From the NCBI GenBank assembly GCA_050953065.1, contig JBMNLZ010000003.1, forward strand, positions 224,001 through 288,000: a stretch of DNA of 64,000 nt, read 5' to 3'. The position numbers were made by a program, and so were the translations under genes. Below are positions 2,476 to 50,042 of the stretch, piece after piece. Within the stretch, counting starts at the first letter, position 1; the number at the start of each line of letters is the position of its first letter. Source of the DNA: Bacilli bacterium. Lineage in GTDB: Bacteria; Bacillota_I; Bacilli_A; ML615J-28; CAG-698. The notes under the pieces were generated by a model that saw only the letters and a program-made list of their open reading frames with translations, searched no databases and was not told the DNA's origin.

Positions 2476-5400
2476 TTAAGTTAAAGTAACTGATATTCCT
2501 TTTTGAGCAACAAATGATGTTCCATCAATTTCAGCATAAATAGTTACCTTTCCTATTGAATATGCTCTAACTAACCCATTCTCATCAACTGTTGCTACCC
2601 CTGGATTACTTGTACTCCACTTAACAGTTAAAGATTCATTTTCAGGGGTAATAGTATAACCTAACTGCATTGTTTGACCAACTTTCATGGAGTTTGAACC
2701 ACCAGTAATTGTTATTGTATAATTTACTTCTGGAGGATTAGAATCAGTCACAGTAATTAAAATTGTATCATAAACAGTTGGATCGTTTACTAAATAAGCA
2801 GTAATTGTTACAACACCAGCACTAACTCCTGTAACAACTCCGTTATTAACAAAAGCTACATTATTATCACTTGAACTCCACTGAATAGCACCACCAACAT
2901 TTGAAGTTGCAGTTAAAGTAATTTGTTCTGCTACTTCTACAGTATCAAGCCCACTAATTGTTACAGTAGGTGTAACTTGGCTTACACTAATATTTGTAAA
3001 AGCTACTATTTCATCTCCTGAAATATCAACAATTAAATATATCGTAACATTTCCAGTACTAACTCCTTTAACTAAACCACCAGATGTTACAGATGCAACT
3101 CCCACATTACTGCTTGACCACGAAATAATAGCATTAGGGTTAGCTGGATCAATTACATACCCAAGTTGTAATTCTTCATTCACTGTAATATTTTTTGAAT
3201 TAGTGATGTATACATTTGGAAGAGAACTTGAATTATTAGTTACCGCAACCTCATGTGTTGCATAAACATTAGCATCAGTTGAAAGTGCTGCTTTAATATT
3301 AACAACTCCTTCTGCAACGCCATATACTATACCATTATTAACAATCGCTACATTTGAATTACTACTTGTCCAAGTAACATTTCCACCATTAGAAGCACTT
3401 GCAAGTAAAGTTATTGTTTCTTCGATATTAACCTCATGAGCACCAGTAATTGTTATCGTAATTACTTCAGTTTCAGTTACTGTAATATTAACAGAGTTAG
3501 TAATTGTAGTTCCTTCAATTGAAGCAGTTATTTGAACAGTACCTGTTGCTTTTGCAGTAACAAGCCCAGTTGCACTAACTGATGCCACACTAGAGTTGCT
3601 TGATTCCCATAATACAACTGCACTACTATTTGCAGGATTAATTGTATAACCAAGTTGTCTAGTATTACCAATTACTAAATTGACATTGTTTGTTATTGTA
3701 AGAGTACTACCTGGTCCAGTTTCTAAAACTTTAATACTATGTGTTGCTGATACATCTTCATCTGATGATAGATAAGCAGTAATATTTACATCTCCTTGTG
3801 CAACACCATATACTACACCATTATTAACAAATGCTATATTACTATTACTTGTAGTCCAAGTAATAGCACCCTCTAGATTACACGTGGCTTTTAATGTTAT
3901 TTGTTCACCTTTAATTATTTGATTTCCACCAGTTATACTCATAATTCCATTTGGAGAAGAAGCTTCACTAACTACTTCTAGTTGGTGAGTTGCTTTAACT
4001 GCTGGATCACTTTGTAAATAAGCAGAAATTATAACCGTACCTACTGCTAAACCTAAAACACTTCCATTATTAACTAACGCTTTATTTGTATCACTACTTT
4101 CCCAAACAATCGTACCAACTTCAGAACATTCAACTATTAAATCAATAGTATTAGCAACTACTACTTCACTTGGCCCAGTAATTGTAATAGTTGGTGCAGC
4201 AACTATTAATAAAGTTACTGTACTTGAAACATTTTGATTTGCAGTTAGAGTTGCAGTAATTACAACCGAACCTTCGCCTATTCCTGTTACTAATCCACTA
4301 CTATTTACTGTTGCCATATTAGTATGATTTGAAGTATAACTAACAATAACTCCTTCTGGAACTAACCCAAGTTGCATTGTGCTTCCTACATATAAATAAC
4401 TATTTTGTCTAATCAACATAATAGAAGTAGGTATAATATAAATTTCTATTGTATCAGTAATTGTTTCATCTTCATCTAGTGTTACAGTAATATCAACAAA
4501 GCCACCTTTTTTTGCAGTAATTAAACCAGTTGCTGAGACTGTTGCAATATTTTCATCTGATGAGGCAAAACTATAACTAGCATTCTTAGGAGTAACAACT
4601 ACGACAGCTTGTGAAGTCTCACCAACAGTTATCTCAGTTGCAGTACCAATTAAACTAATAGATCTTACAACATCATAAACTGTAATCAACACTTCATCAT
4701 AAATACTAGAACCTTCAATTGAAACTGTAATCGTAGCAGTTCCTACTTTTTTGGCTTCTAGTAAACCACTAGAATTAATACTTATTATACTATTATCACT
4801 ACTACTCCAATTTATGATAATTGATTCATCGATAAAATTAATTGAATAACCAAGTTGTAAAGTTTCACCAAGTCCAACATCACTTGCATTGTTTATTATA
4901 ATACTTTGAGTTAAATTATCTTGATTTTCAAAAACTTCAATTTCATATGATGTAATTAAAGTTGGATCACTTGACAAAAAGGCTACAATATCAACAACAC
5001 CTGCACTAACTCCAGTAACTTTTCCAGTTTCATCAACTGTAGCAATATTCTTATCACTAGAAACCCAAGAAATATTGCCAACAACAGAACAAGTTGCAGT
5101 TAATTTAATATTTTTTGAAACTAATAATTCATTAAACCCGGTAATTGTAATTGTCTCACCTGAATTAGGACTCATAACTAAAACAATATGAGTTGAAAAA
5201 ATGCTAGGATCATTTTTTAAACTAGCAATGATTGTTGCTTGTCCAACAGACACCCCATAGACAATGCCATTAACAACCGTAGCAACATATGGATTACTAC
5301 TTGACCATGCAAAATTTGTTGCTCCTAAAGATTCTGTTGCATTAAGTAAAATTGTATCACCTACTAAAACTGTATCATTACCTGTTATTGTTATAGTAGG

Positions 5401-6750
5401 TTTTTCTATTTCACCTGAAATAGTGATAACATAGGTTGCACTAAATTCATCATTGTAACCAGCTGAGGCTACAACTACTAAATTACCAGCTTTATGAGCA
5501 GTTAATAAGCCTGAAGCTGAAATTGTAGCTAAAGCTGTATTAGTACTAACCCATTTTATTTCAGAATAATAAGTTGATGAAAAATTAACATTAAGTTGTA
5601 GAGTCTCACCGCTTGCAATAGTATTGCTATCAGCAGTTATACTCATGTTAACTGTTGTAATATCATTTACATAAATTCTATAATTAGAACTAATCGTAGA
5701 ATCACTTTTTAGCGTTGCTGTAATATCAGTAATTCCCTTTTTAATTGGATTTATAACACCTTCATTGTCAACAGTTGCAACACTTACATCACTACTTGTC
5801 CAATTTACCACCGCATCAACATTATAAGGTCTTTCTACCGCAATCAAAGTTGCACTGTTTCCAACTTGAAAATATCTTTTACCTAATATATCAACTGAAA
5901 TTTCTATTTTAGCTTCCGTAACTTCAAAAATTAAATATGCTCTAACCTTTGTATCAGTGCTTAAAACTGCACTAACTACTGCCGTTCCAACGGCATTAGC
6001 TGTAGCAGTATTACCACTAATACTTACTACGGATGGAGTATCAGAAGAAAAAGTTACTAGCGAAGAATTAGTAATATTTTCTAAAACAGGAGCAAGTACT
6101 GCAGTATCTCCTACAAATAAATCAAGTTTACTATTAGCAAAAGTAATACTTGGTGTAATATCTGCTAAACTTTGACCAACTATAATATCTACTGAGGTAA
6201 ATTTATCAGTTCCAACTATAGTTACTGTGATTGTTGTTGTTCCACTTGTAAAAGCTCTAACTAACCCTGAATTACTAACATTAGCAACACTTGGTTTACT
6301 ACTGTGCCATTGAAGTTGAGATGATGAGCCATTTGCACTGCTAATAGAGTAAGCAAGTTGTAATTCATCTCCTATAAGCAAGTTTTTTGCATTGGTAATT
6401 TCAATGTCTCTTTGGTCAAGATGTTCTTCAATTATTTCAATGTCTATGAAATATTTTACATCTTCATATGTAACAAAAATACTTTGATCACCTAAAGTTG
6501 TATTATCAAAACCTGTTATCATATTTTTTTCAACAACAATATTTAAAACAGTACCATCTTTATAAGTTCTTTTAATAATTAAACCAGATAAATCTATTTC
6601 TTCATCTAATTCATAAACTGTTTGAAAATTAGTCGTATCTAAAGAAACTTCATATTTTGAAGCATTTAATTTACATCCGTTTAAAAAAAGAAAAAAGAAA
6701 AGAGGTATCATTAATAACCATTTCTTATTTAAAAAAATATTTTTCATCAT
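2476..6750 (-). CDS. Large surface lipoprotein with tandem bacterial Ig-like (Big_2-type) repeats
   Basis: Lipobox-like LNGC after a hydrophobic stretch; many ~80-aa repeats of W-S-S-S-x-x-x-VA-x-V...G-x-V...G-x-x-x-IT. Confidence 0.85.
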   Translation of the reverse strand: MMKNIFLNKKWLLMIPLFFFLFLNGCKLNASKYEVSLDTTNFQTVYELDEEIDLSGLIIKRTYKDGTVLNIVVEKNMITGFDNTTLGDQSIFVTYEDVKYFIDIEIIEEHLDQRDIEITNAKNLLIGDELQLAYSISSANGSSSQLQWHSSKPSVANVSNSGLVRAFTSGTTTITVTIVGTDKFTSVDIIVGQSLADITPSITFANSKLDLFVGDTAVLAPVLENITNSSLVTFSSDTPSVVSISGNTATANAVGTAVVSAVLSTDTKVRAYLIFEVTEAKIEISVDILGKRYFQVGNSATLIAVERPYNVDAVVNWTSSDVSVATVDNEGVINPIKKGITDITATLKSDSTISSNYRIYVNDITTVNMSITADSNTIASGETLQLNVNFSSTYYSEIKWVSTNTALATISASGLLTAHKAGNLVVVASAGYNDEFSATYVITISGEIEKPTITITGNDTVLVGDTILLNATESLGATNFAWSSSNPYVATVVNGIVYGVSVGQATIIASLKNDPSIFSTHIVLVMSPNSGETITITGFNELLVSKNIKLTATCSVVGNISWVSSDKNIATVDETGKVTGVSAGVVDIVAFLSSDPTLITSYEIEVFENQDNLTQSIIINNASDVGLGETLQLGYSINFIDESIIINWSSSDNSIISINSSGLLEAKKVGTATITVSIEGSSIYDEVLITVYDVVRSISLIGTATEITVGETSQAVVVVTPKNASYSFASSDENIATVSATGLITAKKGGFVDITVTLDEDETITDTIEIYIIPTSIMLIRQNSYLYVGSTMQLGLVPEGVIVSYTSNHTNMATVNSSGLVTGIGEGSVVITATLTANQNVSSTVTLLIVAAPTITITGPSEVVVANTIDLIVECSEVGTIVWESSDTNKALVNNGSVLGLAVGTVIISAYLQSDPAVKATHQLEVVSEASSPNGIMSITGGNQIIKGEQITLKATCNLEGAITWTTSNSNIAFVNNGVVYGVAQGDVNITAYLSSDEDVSATHSIKVLETGPGSTLTITNNVNLVIGNTRQLGYTINPANSSAVVLWESSNSSVASVSATGLVTAKATGTVQITASIEGTTITNSVNITVTETEVITITITGAHEVNIEETITLLASASNGGNVTWTSSNSNVAIVNNGIVYGVAEGVVNIKAALSTDANVYATHEVAVTNNSSSLPNVYITNSKNITVNEELQLGYVIDPANPNAIISWSSSNVGVASVTSGGLVKGVSTGNVTIYLIVDISGDEIVAFTNISVSQVTPTVTISGLDTVEVAEQITLTATSNVGGAIQWSSSDNNVAFVNNGVVTGVSAGVVTITAYLVNDPTVYDTILITVTDSNPPEVNYTITITGGSNSMKVGQTMQLGYTITPENESLTVKWSTSNPGVATVDENGLVRAYSIGKVTIYAEIDGTSFVAQKGISVTLT

Positions 6751-8459: not shown

Positions 8460-8954
8460 TTAAGCAACTGAACCAGTAAATGTTAATGTGAAAGTAATAG
8501 GTTGTCCTTTAACTTCATCATAAGCTGCTTGTGTAGCAGGTTCAGCCATAGTTACTTCTACAGTAAACAATGTAGGTGTTGTAGTAATTGTTGTTGAACC
8601 AGATGGAGTTACAGTAACTGTTACAAGACCAGCATGAGTTGTAGAATTATTAATTTTAACATTGCTTGCAGTCGCAACAACACTCATTGTTCCTGATACA
8701 GTTTTGCTTGCTGCAACATTGTAAGTTAAAGTAATTTTTTTAACATCATTTGGACCAACATAAGTTGCTGTTGATGGAATTAAAACCTTCCCTGCTGGAG
8801 CTGTTGCTACCGCTTCAACTTCTACAGTTAATCCTTCACCAATTGTAATTGTTTCATCTTTTGTAACTGTTAAATTATCCCAATATGCATAAATTAAACC
8901 TGCACTCAATGAAATAAACAACACTAATAAAATAACTGATAAACGTTTTAACAT
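8460..8954 (-). CDS. Secreted protein with SipW-type (TasA/camelysin-like) signal peptide; putative fibre subunit
   Basis: Hydrophobic leader ending IYAYWDNL; Thr/Val-rich beta-strand body ending ITFTLTFTG; paralog of 10073..10555 and 10656..11150. Confidence 0.7.
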   Translation of the reverse strand: MLKRLSVILLVLFISLSAGLIYAYWDNLTVTKDETITIGEGLTVEVEAVATAPAGKVLIPSTATYVGPNDVKKITLTYNVAASKTVSGTMSVVATASNVKINNSTTHAGLVTVTVTPSGSTTITTTPTLFTVEVTMAEPATQAAYDEVKGQPITFTLTFTGSVA

Positions 8955-9038: not shown

Positions 9039-9144
9039 CAAAATAAAAACTACCATAAAAATATTTTTTATGGTAGCTGGCTATCTTACATCTAAGACCC
9101 TGTAGTTTTCCGTCACTAAATCACTCTAGTTTTGGCTTTTTCAT
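9039..9144 (-). ncRNA. c-di-GMP-I (GEMM) riboswitch with terminator, copy A
   Basis: Minus strand GCCAAAACUAGA-GUGA-UUUAGUGACGGAAAACUACAGGGUCUUA...UAAGAUAGCCAGCUACC matches the GEMM layout (GNRA loop, GACG-AAA junction); its 3' end overlaps terminator CUACCAUAAAA/UUUUAUGGUAG-U5. Confidence 0.9.
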
Positions 9145-9166
9145 TTATTTATCACTTTGTATTTAT

Positions 9167-9274: not shown

Positions 9275-9898
9275 CTATAAGGGACTATATACTATCCTAA
9301 TATCATCAATATTCAAATCATATAAAGTAAATGTACCACCTGTAAAATCGAACCTAAAAGTAATTACACTATCTCTACTAAATACAGTACCATTTACACC
9401 TGTTGTATAAAAATAAGATAAATCAAATTCAGTATAACTAAATGTTTTAGGAATTGTTTGGTTATCTATCAAAGTTACTGTAGTAATACCGTTGATAGTG
9501 GCAGTCAAGGTTAATTTAGGACTACCCAAACCATATTTTGATTGACCATAATAAAAAGAAATAAAATTAGCTCCTTTATAGCTATCTACCGAAGCCAAAG
9601 ATGAATTACGTTTCATTCTTAAGCTTCTCGTATCATTGTAGTTATCCAAAAAACTATTCCCATATGTTGAATTTGTTATCGACCACACTTTACCATCTAA
9701 ATTAACATTTCCTGTTCCGCCAGTATAATTTTCAAAACCTGTTAAATAAACACCTCTCCAATCGCCAATTGGAATTGTTTCATTTTGTAAAGTGCTTAAA
9801 TTGTCAAAATAAGCATAACTGACAGAAATAGTAATAAAAAATGTTAATATTGACATTATCCATATCATATATATTGGTATAATTTCAATTTTTTTCAC
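9275..9898 (-). CDS. Secreted SipW-type signal-peptide protein (long type)
   Basis: Leader ending SYAYFDNL; beta-rich domain with TGFEN near the start and LNIDDI near the end; GTG start. Confidence 0.7.
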   Translation of the reverse strand: MKKIEIIPIYMIWIMSILTFFITISVSYAYFDNLSTLQNETIPIGDWRGVYLTGFENYTGGTGNVNLDGKVWSITNSTYGNSFLDNYNDTRSLRMKRNSSLASVDSYKGANFISFYYGQSKYGLGSPKLTLTATINGITTVTLIDNQTIPKTFSYTEFDLSYFYTTGVNGTVFSRDSVITFRFDFTGGTFTLYDLNIDDIRIVYSPL

Positions 9899-9939: not shown

Positions 9940-10045
9940 CAAAATAAAAACTACCATAAAAATATTTTTTATGGTAGCTGGCTATCTTACATATAAGACC
10001 CTGTAGTTTTCCGTCACTAAATCACTCTAGTTTTGGCTTTTTCAT
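9940..10045 (-). ncRNA. c-di-GMP-I riboswitch with terminator, copy B (intercistronic)
   Basis: 106-bp direct repeat of 9039..9144 with one mismatch (9993 vs 9092). Confidence 0.9.
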
Positions 10046-10072
10046 ATATTTTGCTAATTCTTTACTAACTTT

Positions 10073-10655: not shown

Positions 10656-11150
10656 TTATACTGCAGAAAGTTTTACAGTGAATTTAATTGGTTTATTTAC
10701 AACACTTTCATATTCTAAATAATCCTTTGGTTCACTTAAAGTTACTTTCACAGTAACTTGTGCATTTAATTTATTAGCTATTTCCCTAACTTTTATAATT
10801 TCAAAATTAACTAAACTACCTAATTCTAAAGATTCACCAATCATAACGTTGATAGCCTCAACATTTAGTTCTACTTCTTTTACGGTTTTAGAGTTTAATT
10901 TTACATTATACTGTAAAATCACTTCTTTTACATCGTTATCTTTAGCAATGGCTGTTATAGGGATTAAAGTTTTATCTGGACAACTAAGAACTTCTACAAC
11001 TTCAATTGAATCGTTTTCACCTAATCTTAAATAAAGGCTTTCAGCTTTAGTTGTGCTTCTCCAAAATAATATACCTAAAGCGATATTAAAACATAAATAT
11101 ATAAGTAATAAAACTATAAACAATTTTTTACGTCTTATTATTCTACGCAT
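10656..11150 (-). CDS. Membrane-anchored or secreted paralog of the short-type subunits
   Basis: Shares LIPITA..DVKEVILQYNV and IKFTVKLSA motifs; N-terminal TM segment, but lacks the AYW/AYF-D cleavage motif. Confidence 0.65.
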   Translation of the reverse strand: MRRIIRRKKLFIVLLLIYLCFNIALGILFWRSTTKAESLYLRLGENDSIEVVEVLSCPDKTLIPITAIAKDNDVKEVILQYNVKLNSKTVKEVELNVEAINVMIGESLELGSLVNFEIIKVREIANKLNAQVTVKVTLSEPKDYLEYESVVNKPIKFTVKLSAV

Positions 11151-11230: not shown

Positions 11231-11330
11231 AATAAAAAAGCGCCATAAAAACTTTATGGCAGCTGGCTATCTTATACTTAAGACCCTATAGTTTTCCGTC
11301 ACTAGATCACTCTAGTTTTGGCACTTTTAC
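11231..11330 (-). ncRNA. c-di-GMP-I riboswitch with terminator, copy C
   Basis: GCCAAAACUAGA-GUGA-UCUAGUGACGGAAAACUAUAGGGUCUUA...UAAGAUAGCCAGCUGCC followed by terminator GCCAUAAA/UUUAUGGC and a U-tract. Confidence 0.9.
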
Positions 11331-11338
11331 ACACTTTT

Positions 11339-11442: not shown

Positions 11443-13539
11443 TTAACGATTTGTAATGATATCCCACAAACATCTAAAGCTATCGCTTGAAATAACTGGT
11501 GCAATAATTAAAGAAATAATAGACATTAACTTAATTAAAATATCCATGGCAGGGCCTGCTGTATCTTTGAAAGGATCTCCTACTGTATCTCCAGTTACAG
11601 CTGCTTTATACGTTTCACTATCTTTTCCACCGTAATTTCCTTCTTCAATATATTTCTTAGCATTGTCCCAAGCACCACCAGCATTAGCCATGAATACAGC
11701 TAACATAATAGCACTAACAAGTCCACCAACTAAAATTCCACCAAGTCCAGCTGGACCGATTAATAAGCCACCCACAATTGGAGATGCAATTGCAATAATG
11801 CCAGGAATAATCATTTCTTTTAATGCAGCTTTTGTTGAAATATCAACACATCTTGCATAATCAGGTTTACTAGTACCTTCCATAATACCAGGATCTTCTC
11901 TAAATTGAAGACGAACTTCTTCAATCATTTGATTAGCTGCCTTACCAACTGATTTAATAGTAAGCGATGAGAATAGATAAGGTAACATAGAACCCACTAA
12001 TACACCTGAAATTACTTCAGGAGCAATTAAGTTAATTGCATCAAGTTTTGTTGCTGCTGCATATGCTACAAACAAAGCAACTGATGTTAAAGTTGCAGAC
12101 CCTATACAGAAACCTTTTCCAATAGCAGCTGTAGTGTTACCAACTGAATCAAGTTTATCTGTAATTGCTCTAACGCTTTTATCTAAATTTGCCATTTCAG
12201 CAATTCCACCAGCATTATCAGAAATTGGTCCATAACCATCAACACTAATAGTAATTCCTGCAGTTGAAAGCATACCAACAGCAGCTAAACCTATTCCATA
12301 TAAACCAAATGCAAAATACGCAATAATAATACCTAATACTAATACTGCAATAGTTAAAGCAGTTGATTGCATTCCACTACCAAATCCTGCGATTATGTTA
12401 GTAGCATGACCAGTCTGAGATTGCTTCGCAACCTCTTTTACTTGTTTATAATCACTTGATGTATACCATTCAGCAATTCTACCAACCATTACACCTGCAA
12501 ACAATCCTGCAAAAACTGCTAAAAACGCACCAAATGTTTTCAAATATAATAAACTTAATAAAAGTGAGCCCAACAATACTATTCCAGTTGCAACATAAGT
12601 TGAAATTGATAAAGTGATTTGAGGGTTTTTCCATTCACGCATTCTAATAAAAATAACACTTAACAAAGCAGCAATAACTCCAATTGCAGCTATCATTAGT
12701 GGGAATAAAATATATTTAATACTTGCTTCCATTGTTGCTGCATAAATTGAACCAAGTGCTACAGCAGAAATAATAGCTCCAACATATGATTCACATAAAT
12801 CACTACCCATTCCAGCAACATCCCCAACATTATCTCCAACATTATCAGCAATAACTGCAGGGTTTCTTGGGTCATCTTCTGGAATTCCAGCTTCAACTTT
12901 ACCAACTAAATCCGCTCCAACATCGGCAGCTTTTGTATAAATACCACCACCAACACGAGCAAATAAAGCTATTGTTGAACAACCAAGTCCATATCCACTA
13001 ATAACATGAACTGCCACTTTTAATTCAAAAATTCCATAAAACATAAGGAATAATGCTGCAAGACCTAACAATCCTAATCCTACTACTACTAATCCTACTA
13101 CTGAACCACCACTAAAAGCAACCTTTAAAGCAGAAGACATTCCACCAGTTTGTGCTGCATGAGTAGTTCTAGAGTTAGCTCTAATTGCTGCTTGCATTCC
13201 AACAAAGCCTGCAAGCCCAGAGAATAATGCTCCAACTAAGAAACAAATAGTTGATTGCCATCCAACTCCTTCAGCATTTTCAAGTCCAGGTATAAACCCA
13301 ACTCCTGTAAGCAATAACCCAATTATAATAAATATAGGGATCATAACCTTATATTCTCTTTTTAAGAAAGCCATAGCTCCCTCTTGAATATAATTACCAA
13401 TTTCTACTACTCTTTCATTTTCTACTTTAATAGCAACAACCTTCTTGTATAAATTAATTACGTATACAAGTGTAGTAAGCGTAGCTGCAATTACCAAAGC
13501 CAAAATAATAATTGTTGATGTACTCATATTTTTTATCAC
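11443..13539 (-). CDS. hppA: Membrane-bound pyrophosphatase, K+-dependent type (probably Na+-translocating)
   Basis: DVGADLVGKVE, DNVGDNVGD, GNTTAA (Ala at the K+ determinant), GDTVGDPFKD; Glu in DLCESY. Confidence 0.92.
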   Translation of the reverse strand: MIKNMSTSTIIILALVIAATLTTLVYVINLYKKVVAIKVENERVVEIGNYIQEGAMAFLKREYKVMIPIFIIIGLLLTGVGFIPGLENAEGVGWQSTICFLVGALFSGLAGFVGMQAAIRANSRTTHAAQTGGMSSALKVAFSGGSVVGLVVVGLGLLGLAALFLMFYGIFELKVAVHVISGYGLGCSTIALFARVGGGIYTKAADVGADLVGKVEAGIPEDDPRNPAVIADNVGDNVGDVAGMGSDLCESYVGAIISAVALGSIYAATMEASIKYILFPLMIAAIGVIAALLSVIFIRMREWKNPQITLSISTYVATGIVLLGSLLLSLLYLKTFGAFLAVFAGLFAGVMVGRIAEWYTSSDYKQVKEVAKQSQTGHATNIIAGFGSGMQSTALTIAVLVLGIIIAYFAFGLYGIGLAAVGMLSTAGITISVDGYGPISDNAGGIAEMANLDKSVRAITDKLDSVGNTTAAIGKGFCIGSATLTSVALFVAYAAATKLDAINLIAPEVISGVLVGSMLPYLFSSLTIKSVGKAANQMIEEVRLQFREDPGIMEGTSKPDYARCVDISTKAALKEMIIPGIIAIASPIVGGLLIGPAGLGGILVGGLVSAIMLAVFMANAGGAWDNAKKYIEEGNYGGKDSETYKAAVTGDTVGDPFKDTAGPAMDILIKLMSIISLIIAPVISSDSFRCLWDIITNR

Positions 13540-45117: not shown

Positions 45118-46254
45118 CTACAATAATCCTGGAACAATATAAAGAATTACTCCACCAACTATAACAGAAGCAATTTGTCCTGCAACGTTTGCTCCAACAG
45201 CAAACATTAATAGGTGGTTAGTTGGATCTTCTTTAAGTCCCATTTTTTGAATAACTCTTGCAGACATTGGGAAAGCTGAAATTCCAGCTGCACCAATCAT
45301 TGGATTTATTTTCTTTCTACTAAATATATTAATTAGTTTTCCAAATAAAACTCCACCAATTGAATCAAAAATGAAAGCAAACAATCCTAATCCCATAATT
45401 AAAATAGTTTCTAATGCAACAAAACTTTCTGCTTGCATACTAAATGAGATAGTAATTCCAAGTAATAATGTAATAAGATTTGCTAAAACCTTACTAGCAG
45501 TTTCTGACAAGCTATCTAATACGCCACATTCTTTAATTAAGTTACCAAACATCAAAAATCCTACTAAAGAAACTGACGCTGGAGCAATTAATCCTGCAAC
45601 AATGGTAACTACAATTGGAAAAAATATCCTTGTAGTTTTACTAACGTTTTGTGGATCATAATCCATTTTAATACTTCTTTCTTTTTTTGTTGTAACTAAC
45701 TTAATAGCAAACGGTTGAATTACAGGTACAAGTGCCATATAAGAATATGCTGCTATTGCTATTGCTCCTACATAATTGCTTTTTAGCACTCTTGAGACGA
45801 GAATTGAGGTTGGTCCATCAGCTGCTCCAATTATACCAATTGAGGCAGCATCTCTTAACTCAAAGCCAAGTAATACCGCTAAAATAATAACTATAAAAAT
45901 TCCTATTTGAGCCGCTGCTCCAAAGAATATTAATTTTGGATTTGAAAGTAACGGTCCAAAATCAATCATTGCGCCAATTCCAATAAAAAGTAATAACGGT
46001 AATGCTTCTGATGCATCAATTCCCACATCAAATAACCAAGATATAATACCTGTAGCTTCAGTTCCATCAGCTAATGTTTGAGTTAAAACTCCAGAATTAG
46101 GCAAGTTAACTAAAATTGCACCAAATCCCATTGGTAAAAGTAGGGCAGGTTCCATTTCTTTTCTAATTGCTAAATAAATTAGAATAAACCCTACTATGTA
46201 CATTACTATTTGTTGCCATGTGATTTGGGTAATCCCTTCATATAAAAAACCCAT
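45118..46254 (-). CDS. oadB: Na+-translocating decarboxylase beta subunit
   Basis: EPALLLPMGFG, IGIIGAADGPT, AAYSYMALVP and GANVAGQI motifs. Confidence 0.92.
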   Translation of the reverse strand: MGFLYEGITQITWQQIVMYIVGFILIYLAIRKEMEPALLLPMGFGAILVNLPNSGVLTQTLADGTEATGIISWLFDVGIDASEALPLLLFIGIGAMIDFGPLLSNPKLIFFGAAAQIGIFIVIILAVLLGFELRDAASIGIIGAADGPTSILVSRVLKSNYVGAIAIAAYSYMALVPVIQPFAIKLVTTKKERSIKMDYDPQNVSKTTRIFFPIVVTIVAGLIAPASVSLVGFLMFGNLIKECGVLDSLSETASKVLANLITLLLGITISFSMQAESFVALETILIMGLGLFAFIFDSIGGVLFGKLINIFSRKKINPMIGAAGISAFPMSARVIQKMGLKEDPTNHLLMFAVGANVAGQIASVIVGGVILYIVPGLL

Positions 46255-46366
46255 TAATTGTCTCCTTACTTTAAAATTTTTTAACTTGTTTACTAAATAC
46301 TATTAAAACAGAATATTTTAACAATATTCTGTTTTAAATAGTCTATTATTATTTGTTTTTCTAATT

Positions 46367-48472
46367 CTAGAAAATACTATACATTAAGAATAACATTGCC
46401 ATTAATGATGCAATTAATGAAACAACTGTAATTTGAGTGTTAATAGAAGGTCCAGCTGTATCTTTAAATGGATCACCAATAGTATCACCTACTACTGCAG
46501 ATTTATGAGCCACACTTCCTTTTCCACCGTTATTTCCAGCTTCAACATATTTCTTAGCATTATCCCAAGTTCCACCAGCATTAGACATATATAAAGCTAA
46601 GAATAATCCTACTACGATATTTCCTAATAAGAATCCACCAATAGCTTTAACTCCGCCTAAGAATCCTACTACTAAAGTAGCGATAATTGTAAAGCCTCCA
46701 GCGATCATTAATTCTCTAATAGCTCCACTAGTTGCAATAGCGATACATTTATCATATTCAGGTTCAACACCTGCTTTACCTTCTTTTAAACCAGGAATTT
46801 CTTCAAATTGACGATGAATTTCTGTTAACATTCTTTGAGCATTCTTATCAACACCTCTAATTAATAAAGCAGAGAATACCGCAGGAATTGTTGCTCCGAT
46901 TAAAATACCAAAGAACACAACTGGGTCAAGTACGTCAAAGCCTGTTAATAATTCATATGTTCCAACTCCTTGATGCATAAGTCTTTCTATAATATCATTT
47001 ACTTCTGCAAGAAAAGCACCAAGTAGAGAAATTACAGTAAGTCCTGCTGCAGAAATTGCAAATCCTTTTGTAATAGCTTTTACAGTATTTCCAGCACTGT
47101 CTAATTCATCAGTGATTGCAATAACCTCATCAGTAAGTCCACCCATTTCAGCTAAACCTCTAGCATTATCAACAATTGGTCCGTAAGCGTCATTTGAAAC
47201 AATCATCGCAACAATTGATAACATACCAACAGCTGCCATTGAAATACCAAGCATACCAGATGTTACATCACCACTAATAGGGAAACAAATCTTATATGAT
47301 AATAATGCTGATAAAGCAATTCCAACCATTGCAGGGAATGAACTTAAGAATCCATAACTAGTACCTGATAATACTGTAAATGCAGGGCCTAATTCAGATG
47401 CTTTAGCAACATTTTGAACCGGTTTCTTTTCATCATTTGTAAAGTAATCAGTAGTAATGCCAATTACTACACCAACTAATAATCCAATTACAGTTGCACC
47501 CCAAATACGCCATTTATCTACTAAAGGAATGATTAAAGTTGCAATTGCAGTTAATCCAACAAATAAACCAGTTGTAATATAAGTAGTTAAGTTTAATGCA
47601 CGTGTAGGATTTCCTGATTCACCAATTCTAGCTAGAATAACACCAACAATTGATGCTAATAATCCAAGTGATGCATAACAGAAAATAATTGGAACAAAAT
47701 TAGCACCTACTGCTGCGGATACAACTGCAGCAATTGTAATAGTTGCAGCAAATGCAGCAACATTAGAGTCAAATAAGTCAGCACCCATTCCCGCAACATC
47801 ACCAACGTTATCACCAACGTTATCAGCAATAACCGCAGGGTTTCTTGGGTCATCTTCTGGAATTCCTAATTCAACTTTTCCAGCAAGGTCAGCACTGATA
47901 TCAGCAGTTTTTGTAAAGATACCACCACCAACTTTAGCAAATAAAGCCAGTGAACTAGCACCAAAACTAAATCCAAGCAAAACTGTAGCATCTTTTGTAA
48001 TCCAGTAAACAGCAGTTACACCGATAAGACCTAAGCCAACTACTGCCATGCCCATAACACTTCCACCTCTAAAGCCAACATTAAAAGCAGTTTTAATGCC
48101 GTCTTTTGCAGCCTCAGCACACTTTCCATTGGCATCAGTTGCAACTTCAAGCCCTATAACACCAGCTACTGCAGAAAGAACTGTACCAAGAATATAAGCT
48201 ACTGCCATATAAATGTTTTCTTTTATAACAGCTTCAGCTTTCCAAATTGGTGTTGGCAAGAAAACAAAAATTAACACAACAGCTACTAAAACAAATCTTA
48301 ATAATACTAGGTACTCTTTCTTTAAAAAAGTTCTTGCCCCTCTTTTAATTAGTTTACCTACTCTTTGGATTTCAGCATTCTCAGATGGTTGTTTTTTAAT
48401 CCATCTAAAAAATACGAAAGCCACCACAAACGATGCGGCAGATACAACAAGCGCCAAAATATAAAATACCAT
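46367..48472 (-). CDS. hppA: Second membrane-bound pyrophosphatase, Lys-type (predicted K+-independent)
   Basis: DISADLAGKVE, DNVGDNVGD, GNTVKA (Lys at the K+ determinant), GDTIGDPFKD. Confidence 0.88.
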   Translation of the reverse strand: MVFYILALVVSAASFVVAFVFFRWIKKQPSENAEIQRVGKLIKRGARTFLKKEYLVLLRFVLVAVVLIFVFLPTPIWKAEAVIKENIYMAVAYILGTVLSAVAGVIGLEVATDANGKCAEAAKDGIKTAFNVGFRGGSVMGMAVVGLGLIGVTAVYWITKDATVLLGFSFGASSLALFAKVGGGIFTKTADISADLAGKVELGIPEDDPRNPAVIADNVGDNVGDVAGMGADLFDSNVAAFAATITIAAVVSAAVGANFVPIIFCYASLGLLASIVGVILARIGESGNPTRALNLTTYITTGLFVGLTAIATLIIPLVDKWRIWGATVIGLLVGVVIGITTDYFTNDEKKPVQNVAKASELGPAFTVLSGTSYGFLSSFPAMVGIALSALLSYKICFPISGDVTSGMLGISMAAVGMLSIVAMIVSNDAYGPIVDNARGLAEMGGLTDEVIAITDELDSAGNTVKAITKGFAISAAGLTVISLLGAFLAEVNDIIERLMHQGVGTYELLTGFDVLDPVVFFGILIGATIPAVFSALLIRGVDKNAQRMLTEIHRQFEEIPGLKEGKAGVEPEYDKCIAIATSGAIRELMIAGGFTIIATLVVGFLGGVKAIGGFLLGNIVVGLFLALYMSNAGGTWDNAKKYVEAGNNGGKGSVAHKSAVVGDTIGDPFKDTAGPSINTQITVVSLIASLMAMLFLMYSIF

Positions 48473-48555
48473 TTTTCTCCTCCTTTGATATTCTTTTATA
48501 TTTTTAACACTAAATAATAAATAATTTATTATTATGTTAATGACCTAAAATTAAT

Positions 48556-48748
48556 TTTAAATTTAAAAAGTGGACATAGTCCACCCACACTTGACAGACT
48601 CCACCTAATTAAAACAATTATTTAAATTTAAAAAGTGGACATAGTCCACCCACACTTGACAGACTCCACCTAATTAAAAACAGTATTTAATTTAAAAAGT
48701 GGACATAGTCCACCCAAGCTTGACAGACTCCACCTTAATTTAAAACAG
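48556..48748 (-). ncRNA. Three tandem ~65-nt aptamer-like + terminator units (candidate Na+-sensing riboswitch array)
   Basis: 3x AGGUGGAGUCUGUCAAG(UG/CU)UGG-GUGGAC-UAU-GUCCAC-UUUUU, periods 65 and 64, located between the promoter and hppA-oadB-oadG. Confidence 0.65.
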
Positions 48749-48776
48749 TTATTATATAAACACATCCACGTTTAAA

Positions 48777-48805
48777 ATTGTATCACTTAATTATTTTAAA
48801 ATCAA
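48777..48805 (-). promoter_or_regulatory. Sigma-A promoter upstream of the tandem leader
   Basis: TTGATT-17-TACAAT with extended -10 TG. Confidence 0.7.
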
Positions 48806-49007
48806 GTAGTTTTTACTTTTTATTACACGTGTAAATTTTTAAAATTATTTAAGCTATCATTTCTATCAAGATTAAAAATAGAGATTCATACTTTAAAATT
48901 TTTTTACTTAACTTTTAATAAAAAATGCAAATTAATCAAGACTTTTCTCAATTTAATTTGCATTTTTATACTCTTTTTGCAAATTAAATTTAATTTTAAT
49001 TTGCAGT

Positions 49008-50042
49008 TTATTTTAAATATTTAATCCAATTATTTAATGATTTAACACTTCTTAAATATCCTTTAACTTCAGGACTATATAGCATTGAATTATAAATTGC
49101 TTCTTCTGTTGCTTCTACTACTGCTTGAAATAAAAGATTAAGATGTTTTTGAGATAAAACATTTTGTGTTAAAAAACTAGCATCATCTGTTGCACTAATA
49201 GTATTTGCAGTAGTAAATCCTACAAAAACATCTCCACTACCATGACCTACATAAGAACCCGTTCTTCCTATTGCAATACTTGCTCTTTTAACAATTCGCC
49301 TCAAACTATTATTATCAAGTCCAATATCAGTTGCAACTACTACTATAATAGAACCTTTATCTTCTTCACCTTTTGAAGATTCTTTTTGAATCTCTTTACC
49401 AATTGGTTTACCATTAACAATTAAATCTTTACTACTAGAATGTCCAAAGTTAGAATTTATCAAAACTCCTAAAGTGTAAGTTTTATCATCAATTACTATT
49501 TCTCTAGAGCTAGAGCCAATTCCCCCCTTTAACCCATGACAAATCATTCCAGCACCTGCTCCAATACTTCCTTGGAAGTTATTAGTATTAGCAGAGGTTA
49601 TAGCTTCTTTTACGTCTTCAAACGTAACAGCTATTTTTCTTATATTATTTAATTTACCATCATTACATTCTAAAACTATTGGATTAACTGTGCCAAGTGA
49701 AAGTCCTAGTTCAGGATTTTCATCAATTAAAATCCTGACTAAAGAATCACTTACCTCTCCAACAGCTAAAGTATTAGTTAACATAATTGGTGTTTCAATT
49801 GTTCCAAGTTCATCTATTTGCATTAGACCAACTGATTTACCATAGCCATTCATAACATATGAACTTGCGATAACTTTATTTAAATAAACATTTTCTTTGT
49901 GTGGCAATATCGCAGTGACACCAGTTCTAATGCCATCTTCAGCAATTAATGTTTTATGACCTACTAAAACTCCTTTAACATCGCAAATATGATTTAGTTT
50001 ACCTGGATTTAATTCTCCAACTTTAATTATTCTTTCACTCAT
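49008..50042 (-). CDS. dmpA: DmpA-family (P1/S58) aminopeptidase
   Basis: ICDVKGVLVGH, NGYGK..G, ECND and DKGSII autocleavage motif. Confidence 0.88.
   Translation of the reverse strand: MSERIIKVGELNPGKLNHICDVKGVLVGHKTLIAEDGIRTGVTAILPHKENVYLNKVIASSYVMNGYGKSVGLMQIDELGTIETPIMLTNTLAVGEVSDSLVRILIDENPELGLSLGTVNPIVLECNDGKLNNIRKIAVTFEDVKEAITSANTNNFQGSIGAGAGMICHGLKGGIGSSSREIVIDDKTYTLGVLINSNFGHSSSKDLIVNGKPIGKEIQKESSKGEEDKGSIIVVVATDIGLDNNSLRRIVKRASIAIGRTGSYVGHGSGDVFVGFTTANTISATDDASFLTQNVLSQKHLNLLFQAVVEATEEAIYNSMLYSPEVKGYLRSVKSLNNWIKYLK

Follow-up and report, generated by a model that had tools for sequence, protein, structure and literature searches.

In the RAT antiterminators read by LicT and SacY, as in the trp leader with TRAP, a weak hairpin or strand lying over the left arm of a terminator depends on a factor for the outcome of its competition with that terminator, and for pyrBI and ampC a ribosome has been proposed to hinder the terminator hairpin. 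Other leaders sense a ligand or an ion directly. The HMP-PP riboswitch (thiS motif), as described in parts of PMC6478431, is an aptamer embedded in a terminator, with two exclusive folds, ON logic and a narrow gene set. Sections of PMC9337991 and PMC5737381 describe Na+-I (DUF1646) switches, which use terminators and control Na+-transport genes, including oxaloacetate decarboxylase; the consensus drawn in the former has two extended stems, P1 and P2, and its conserved nucleotides sit at the foot of P1 and in the loop of P2. Placing several switches of one class in tandem, every one with a terminator, is known to make a response sharper and more digital, and triplets of one class are recorded for glycine, SAM-I, c-di-GMP-I and -II, guanine, Moco, FMN, glutamine and Li+-I in sections of PMC9481103.

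Here we describe a tandem array in a 64-kb stretch of DNA (the window). With a probability that we put at about 60%, the array would be the 5' leader of hppA and would hold three copies of an uncatalogued, hppA-specific transcription-attenuation element, either a riboswitch or factor-dependent. From sequence comparison we infer termination, its regulation, the ON direction and the effector.

A tandem array between a promoter and hppA

On the minus strand, a promoter (48805-48777), three units of 64-65 nt and then hppA follow one another (Table 1), as the preliminary description had it: the repeat array, the promoter and a PF03030 gene were all found. Tandem Repeats Finder reported a single array at 48556-48749, with a period of 65, 3.0 copies and 93% matches. 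The head-to-tail units begin about 42 nt downstream of the promoter, and each is laid out as an A/U-rich spacer, GGUGGAGUCUGUCAAG, two variable bases, UGGGUGGAC-UAU-GUCCAC and UUUUU. The proposal that every unit carries its own terminator, GUGGAC-UAU-GUCCAC followed by five U residues, was borne out by a terminator scan, which placed GGGTGGAC-TAT-GTCCACTT and a T-run at all three hairpin positions in Table 1. Six terminator-like sites were detected in the 801-nt region, three of them the unit hairpins, against 0.1 in shuffled sequences.

Table 1. Features of the hppA locus in the window
Feature	Coordinates	Strand	Details
Promoter, sigma-70-type, TTGATT-17-TACAAT, TG before -10	48777..48805	-	9/12 hexamer matches plus TG
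Unit 1, promoter-proximal	48685..48748	-	13-mer 48734-48722; loop variant AAGCUUG; terminator hairpin 48715-48697; U-run; model R1 73.9 bits
Unit 2	48620..48684	-	13-mer 48670-48658; terminator hairpin 48651-48633; U-run; R1 75.9 bits
Unit 3	48555..48619	-	13-mer 48605-48593; terminator hairpin 48586-48568; U-run; R1 75.9 bits
A/U-rich leader remainder	48473..48554	-	includes hppA Shine-Dalgarno AAAGGAGGAG at 48486-48477
hppA, membrane pyrophosphatase, K+-independent (H+-pumping) signature	46367..48472	-	PF03030, E 8.8e-224; closest solved relative 8b37; motif GNTVKAITKG
AU-rich hairpin AAAACAGAAUAUU-GUUAA-AAUAUUCUGUUUU, likely terminator, between hppA stop and next gene	46305..46335	-	read from sequence

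The 16-mer GGTGGAGTCTGTCAAG occurs three times in the 64-kb window, always on the minus strand (at 48734, 48670 and 48605), where 0.13 occurrences would be expected by chance and none of 100 shuffles reached three; nowhere else in the window did we find it, even with three mismatches allowed. The palindrome GTGGAC-NNN-GTCCAC likewise occurs three times against 0.21 expected. In alignments of 65-67 positions, the units agree at 58-61. Units 2 and 3 do not differ between the core and the U-run, and in that part unit 1 departs from them solely by CU for UG. This change, together with an extra A on the 5' side of the core of unit 1, had been taken for compensation; both variants are present, but the UG-to-CU change sits in the loop of the core helix described below, and compensation cannot be demonstrated from a single pair of changes when the copies are nearly identical. 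Each unit also contains two copies of GGUGGA, 20 nt apart. The arrangement is a tandem one, with complete units repeated in one leader, each with a predicted expression platform and putative ligand binding.

The array is followed by 95 A/U-rich nt, a strong Shine-Dalgarno sequence (duplex with the anti-Shine-Dalgarno -11.8 kcal/mol) and the start of the 701-aa HppA at 48472. The upstream neighbour is a peptidase-S58 gene that ends at 49008 and has its own hairpins after it. These are two A/U-rich inverted repeats built on GCAAATTAA (48920-49007, minus strand), probably the terminators of that gene, one of which gave a weak chance match to CRISPR-DR50. The first bases of the predicted transcript, GUGGAUGUG (48761-48769, minus strand), also resemble the left arm of the terminator, and when the first 81 nt are folded by themselves, these bases are paired to the right arm of terminator 1.

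Recurrence of the element and identity of the gene it precedes

We compared the window with 80 loci, taken from the matches listed, that encode HppA relatives at 62-79% identity (676 kb; the window's own species is absent from this set), so that window and loci together gave 740 kb to search for the exact 13-mer. In three of the 80 loci listed (L001, L033 and L038), the exact 13-mer GGUGGAGUCUGUC and a terminator lie between a promoter and hppA. The 676 kb of listed loci hold four exact copies of the 13-mer GGTGGAGTCTGTC, at L001 3284, L033 3501 and 3726, and L038 1252; with the three of the window this makes seven in 740 kb, and all seven are in the sense orientation between a promoter and hppA. 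An extra copy in L033 is interrupted by an N gap, and the sole match with one mismatch is inside a 492-aa ORF. All four species share the order unrelated upstream gene, promoter, motif, terminator-like hairpin, hppA. The promoters match the hexamers at 9-12 of 12 positions, and the motif starts 12-64 nt after the -10. G+C-containing hairpins directly before a U-run, the mark of an intrinsic terminator, were found three times each in the window and L033 and once each in L001 and L038. Because the neighbours of hppA are different in each of the four loci, hppA is the only common gene. Comparison of the array with plasmid and phage collections by blastn returned no match, so nothing points to a mobile repeat. 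Conservation before hppA in other species makes a tandem cis-regulatory attenuator a fair reading of the array.

The number of copies varies among the species. L001 and L038 have one copy each, and L033 has an array of at least three with a period of 69 nt and a spacer unlike that of the window, where the period is 64-65. A run of N lies inside the L033 array (3563-3662); the repeat broke the assembly there, and the copy number is therefore known only as at least three. The occurrence of arrays in two lineages with different spacers argues that multiple copies have a use, and the tandem arrays of the window and L033 probably arose or were maintained separately.

The HppA proteins of the four motif-bearing species are 68-80% identical. 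On a FastTree phylogeny of 81 HppA proteins, those of the window, L001 and the pair L026 and L033 form one clade (support 98), and that of L038 lies far from it, adjoining L051. Among the 80 loci listed, L026, closest to L033, and L051, closest to L038, are without the motif. Its presence would thus need at least three changes on the HppA tree, which makes the distribution patchy.

Model R1, built from six units and searched over the window and the 80 loci, returned the training units, the gap-cut L033 copy and weak matches, and nothing else. The top weak match (L016 8148-8194; 19 bits, E 0.054) is a hairpin before the promoter of another gene, and we judged it to be due to chance. R1 missed L038 because of the insertion there: about 75 nt (1265-1345) stand between the 13-mer and the terminator and include the hairpin AUAGAG-CGAAAAUA-CUCUAU. 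The whole L038 leader folds far better than shuffled versions of it (z -3.9), and the element may exist there in an enlarged form. In 36 of 75 loci, a crude scan picked up terminator-like hairpins no more than 300 nt upstream of hppA. Those that we inspected (L035, L047, L049, L053 and L064) stand after the stop codon of the upstream gene and before hppA's own promoter, a placement that makes the count uninformative on attenuation.

The same arrangement might involve no switch at all. The units could be constitutive terminators or insulators, or the 3' ends of a small RNA transcribed from the upstream promoter, with hppA expressed from a weak downstream promoter, or the 16-mer could be a DNA operator. 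Promoter-like sites do lie downstream of both arrays (48560-48531 in the window, a weak match at 9/12; 3782-3811 in L033, 10/12), the distribution is patchy, and the long and local hairpins described below both end at the U-run, so that both folds may terminate. However, the promoter-like sites downstream of the window's array are no better than those of shuffled sequences (seven found in the window scan, against 5.6 ± 2.8), and on this view four species would keep a strong promoter with no gene to express. What the substitutions in L001 and L038 conserve is RNA complementarity, not DNA sequence, and a non-palindromic motif at 12-64 nt from the -10 is unlike an operator. We regard this explanation as unlikely.

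We then considered which pump the leader would control. At the diagnostic motif, the HppA of the window reads GNTVKAITKG, against GNTTKATTKG in 8b37, a K+-insensitive proton pump and its best solved relative, and GNTTAAIGKG in 4av3, the Na+ pump of T. maritima. It thus has Lys 12.46 and Thr 12.49, a signature common to all 81 proteins from the window and the 80 listed loci. According to sections of PMC10897367, these two residues mark K+-independent enzymes, a subclass known only among H+ pumps. By this signature, the element-linked HppA is predicted to be a K+-independent, H+-type pyrophosphatase. At the position aligned with 6.53, 80 of the 81 HppA proteins scanned, including the window's, have Asp (DLFDS) in place of the 'semi-conserved' Glu; the pattern was unmatched in one locus. 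The window encodes a second membrane pyrophosphatase (11443-13539, minus strand), 39% identical to the first, with GNTTAAIGKG and DLCES (A12.46/G12.49/E6.53), a type of pattern given as Na+-type in Table 1 of PMC10897367. This paralogue has a plain promoter and a short leader, in which the motif was not found. With a Na+-type paralogue lacking the leader in the same genome, the element would mark differential control of the two pumps.

A Na+-decarboxylase beta gene (OAD_beta, 45118-46254) lies downstream of hppA in the window and is absent from the other three loci. It is separated from hppA by an AU-rich 13-bp hairpin with U4 (Table 1), which our consensus terminator scan missed because it has just two G-C pairs. 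We found no conserved regulator gene beside hppA in the four loci.

The preliminary description assigned the units to the DUF1646/Na+-I class, and spoke of Na+ pump genes. A Na+-sensing switch of this kind, or a cation switch of the nhaA type, would turn on Na+-pump genes, and both the terminator-bearing ON-switch architecture and the OAD_beta gene downstream of hppA are what it would lead one to expect. The genes do not fit the label: the leader-bearing HppA has the H+-type signature (K12.46/T12.49), the paralogue with the Na+-type signature is leaderless, and OAD_beta occurs in the window only, behind a hairpin. Nor do the sequences fit the class. Searches with Rfam 15 for DUF1646/Na+-I, nhaA-I and nhaA-II gave no match at E<=10 with either the 801-nt region or a single 76-nt unit, and none at gathering score across the whole window. 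The units, of about 45 nt, are without the two extended stems, P1 and P2, of the Na+-I consensus given in sections of PMC9337991. The main texts of PMC5737381, PMC9337991 and PMC2965389 do not contain the word 'pyrophosphatase'; an earlier listing among the motif-gene associations in their supplements is possible. The H+-type signature, the leaderless Na+-type paralogue and hppA as the sole common downstream gene leave a Na+ switch unsupported, and we consider it very improbable.

More broadly, the element matches no catalogued RNA family in Rfam. No other riboswitch was found at E<=10 on the 801-nt region or the 76-nt unit, the L038 leader matched no riboswitch family, and at gathering score the 16 nearest hppA loci had no riboswitch before hppA, just three tRNAs and an antisense cobalamin element. 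Matches at permissive thresholds (tsr33, snoRNAs, the terminator end of the L20 leader and Ref1C) were noise. The literature that we searched, at the level of main texts, yielded nothing on an hppA leader or riboswitch, no PPi-sensing riboswitch and nothing on how bacteria decide when to make membrane pyrophosphatases. We conclude that the element is a real, conserved and uncatalogued candidate for cis regulation, with thin comparative support, from four species.

Elsewhere in the window, the only Rfam matches at gathering score were three unrelated c-di-GMP-I riboswitches (55-58 bits) within 2.3 kb on the minus strand (9069-9146, 9970-10047 and 11255-11332). Each precedes a small ORF without a Pfam family (8460-8954, 9275-9898 and 10656-11150), and the first and third of these ORFs are 29% identical paralogues with a hydrophobic N-terminus. 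A 1424-aa protein encoded at 2476-6750 (minus strand) has 14 Big_2 repeats and a hyaluronate-lyase N-terminal beta domain and is likely to be a surface protein.

Alternative folds and candidate effectors

Two folds of the unit can be drawn. Fold T is the local terminator, (GG)GUGGAC-UAU-GUCCAC(UU), with a stem of 7-8 bp before U5 and a predicted energy of -9.4 kcal/mol. Fold B, obtained with RNAalifold from six units, takes the entire 13-mer into a helix, in which GUCUGUC pairs with GGUGGAC (seven pairs, three of them G-U) and GGUGGA with UCCACU (six pairs), with UAUG bulged. Of the 78 cells of fold B, 77 are paired, compared with 41-55% when the partner is slid; for fold T the figure is 45 of 48. 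An upstream strand can therefore pair with the left arm of the terminator, partly through G-U pairs, as had been proposed, but this strand is the core GUCUGUC and not the A/U-rich arm: a helix of that arm modelled from unit 1 (UUAAG/CUUGG) pairs 15 of 30 cells over six units, against 17-50% in slid controls. In the six-unit alignment we found no two-sided pair changes in either fold, a count for which the shuffle control was uninformative (500 of 500 shuffles as high), and without such compensatory changes the fold is not proven. What speaks for the helices are one-sided compatible changes in three or four lineages, with a 5' strand that never varies. Single units fold no better than shuffles (z -0.8 to -1.35), with the exception of L001 (z -3.1), and in L038 the helix of GGUGGA with the 3' arm is interrupted by a U-U mismatch and by 17 inserted nt. 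Whole-leader folding was set aside as uninformative on co-transcriptional folding, as the repeats pair with one another.

The terminator stem is kept across the four species despite changes in its sequence, from GGGUGGAC/GUCCACUU in the window and GGGUGGAC/GUCUGCUC in L033 to GUGGGC/GUCCAC in L001 and GGAGGACA/UGUCCUCU in L038, with predicted energies of -9.4 to -22.3 kcal/mol. In all four, the left arm of the terminator is a complement of the 5' strand GGAGUCUGUC, which does not vary. The partner of this strand is GGUGGACUAU in the window, whereas L001 has GGCAUGCUCU and L038 GACAGA(G)CUCU, so that most positions differ while the complementarity stays, which suggests an antiterminator/terminator alternative. 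When transcripts ending before the 3' arm are folded, the GGAGUCUGUC helix forms in each of the four species, with energies of -5.1, -5.1, -8.4 and -28.6 kcal/mol, the last as part of a larger fold. In every species this helix occupies the terminator's left arm, which makes it a candidate antiterminator. For the duplex alone, the energies in the window, L001 and L038 are -5.6, -8.7 and -11.7 kcal/mol; their sum was reached by a shuffled motif in 15 of 2,000 trials, and random windows of the same loci reached the observed duplex 198, 31 and 8 times per 3,000. For the window alone the complementarity is not above chance (398 of 2,000 shuffles and 198 of 3,000 random windows reach it). In three of the four species the 3' arm, once made, can also pair with the GGUGGA that opens the motif, giving a long hairpin that abuts the U-run. 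This long hairpin, fold B, means that the 'antiterminator' might not prevent termination.

We propose that each unit consists of an invariant 5' strand, (A)GGUGGAGUCUGUCA, and a modest intrinsic terminator of about -9.4 kcal/mol. Polymerase starting at the promoter would meet three such terminators in series. At each of them GGAGUCUGUC would be transcribed first and could capture the terminator's left arm and loop by base pairing, forming an antiterminator exclusive with the terminator hairpin. Since the antiterminator helix of the window is weak (about -5 kcal/mol, with three G-U pairs), termination would be the default at each unit. Read-through would become possible if an effector bound the conserved strand and helix, or stabilised them, so that the unit would work as an ON switch, and three units in series would multiply termination and sharpen the response. 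That tandem switches sharpen a dose response, as the preliminary description put it, is an established principle; its expectation that a triple array would be rare is not supported, as such arrays are uncommon but recorded for at least nine classes (sections of PMC9481103).

That one strand is strictly invariant although its partner drifts suggests that something else recognises the invariant strand. If the recogniser were a ribosome, GGUGGAG would be a Shine-Dalgarno-like site for a leader ORF running from nt 17 through the terminator, and the ribosome would hinder the hairpin. Six of the seven units do have a start codon at offset 17, with G, U or A as its first base (GUG, UUG or AUG), and the predicted peptides include MGGLCPLFK.., MGMLCPLFYCL and MGGLRLLILLI; the Shine-Dalgarno-like duplex has -6.9 to -7.4 kcal/mol. 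This duplex is, however, much weaker than that of the true hppA site, the spacing is long (10 nt from GGAG to the start codon, 13 nt from the better-paired AGGUG), and L038 has no start codon at offset 17. A Shine-Dalgarno function would also leave the invariance of the UCUGUCA spacer unexplained, and coding and hairpin constraints are inseparable in these sequences. We rank the ribosome below a ligand or a protein as the recogniser, and think ribosome-mediated attenuation improbable. A second ORF, starting from GUG inside the motif (MESV...), is open in all seven units and has no upstream Shine-Dalgarno sequence; we judged it unlikely to be used. We also discarded a two-quartet G-quadruplex formed from the GGUGG...GGGUGG tracts, a possible K+ sensor, as the fourth G-tract is missing in L001.

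An RNA-binding protein acting in the manner of LicT or SacY on RAT, or of TRAP, would read the GGUGGAGUCUGUCA strand or the hairpin and stabilise or block the antiterminator. An invariance that extends over 13-16 nt in four species, with HppA proteins only 68-80% identical and a drifting pairing partner, fits recognition by a factor acting in trans no less well than it fits a pocket for a ligand. Each unit has its two GGUGGA copies, and tandem sites would titrate a factor. Against this stand the absence of a conserved regulator gene adjoining hppA at any of the four loci and the loss of the second GGUGGA copy in L001. A protein comes next after a ligand or ion, as a serious contender that we hold to be rather unlikely.

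Among the kinds of effector, the likeliest would be a small ligand or an ion that the RNA itself senses, by means of a compact aptamer lying within the terminator as in HMP-PP riboswitches, a preference that we hold tentatively. As the only gene common to all cases is that for a pyrophosphatase predicted to be K+-independent and of the H+ type, the natural candidates for the signal are PPi, energy state, K+, Mg2+ and pH, and Na+ is not favoured. In the most specific form of the proposal, which is possible but on balance doubtful, the units would be an undescribed riboswitch class of about 40 nt, a terminator-embedded aptamer dedicated to the K+-independent H+-pyrophosphatase gene and sensing a signal tied to the enzyme. 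The boldest candidate ligand for such a class is pyrophosphate (or Mg-PPi), with K+ or pH status as alternatives. In that case, nature would have provided three-copy arrays with a steep threshold in the window and in L033.

Membrane pyrophosphatases let energy-limited cells use PPi, and not ATP, to build an ion gradient. A conserved, compact and hppA-specific leader would give a direct handle on the decision to make the enzyme. Should the leader prove to be a riboswitch, it would show what the cell reads as its signal, be it PPi, a cation, pH or energy state. The natural versions with one copy (L001 and L038) and with three (the window and L033, the latter with at least three) offer a test of the dose response of tandem terminators.

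Comparison with described attenuators and riboswitches

Attenuators and same-class triplets are already known; the motif itself is absent from Rfam. The units resemble the RAT and TRAP systems in having a weak strand or hairpin that overlaps the left arm of weak terminators, but we saw no sequence likeness to RAT or to GAG/UAG repeats, and no regulator gene is nearby. With triple-tandem riboswitches such as Bc3-5, reportedly a c-di-GMP-I triplet, the leader shares three complete units with their own expression platforms in one 5' UTR; for such triplets both the ligand and the class of aptamer have been established, whereas the hppA element is known from its sequence. Na+-I switches, as far as described in PMC9337991, are similar in having a leader with a terminator platform and a cation-related gene downstream, and in the ON logic proposed here. 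They differ in that the hppA unit offers one interrupted helix or a terminator hairpin and no P1/P2, the covariance model found no match, and the leader-linked pyrophosphatase is of the predicted H+ type, outside the gene associations of that class. The covariance models of the Li+ riboswitches (nhaA-I and nhaA-II) did not match the units either.

For an aptamer embedded in a terminator, the closest analogue would be the HMP-PP riboswitch, on the description in parts of PMC6478431. The hppA element has another sequence, is not matched by the covariance model and stands before hppA instead of genes for thiamin synthesis. Like the HMP-PP riboswitch, it is very small, with conserved nucleotides placed within or against an otherwise classic intrinsic terminator, and for it we propose the same exclusive folds and ON logic.
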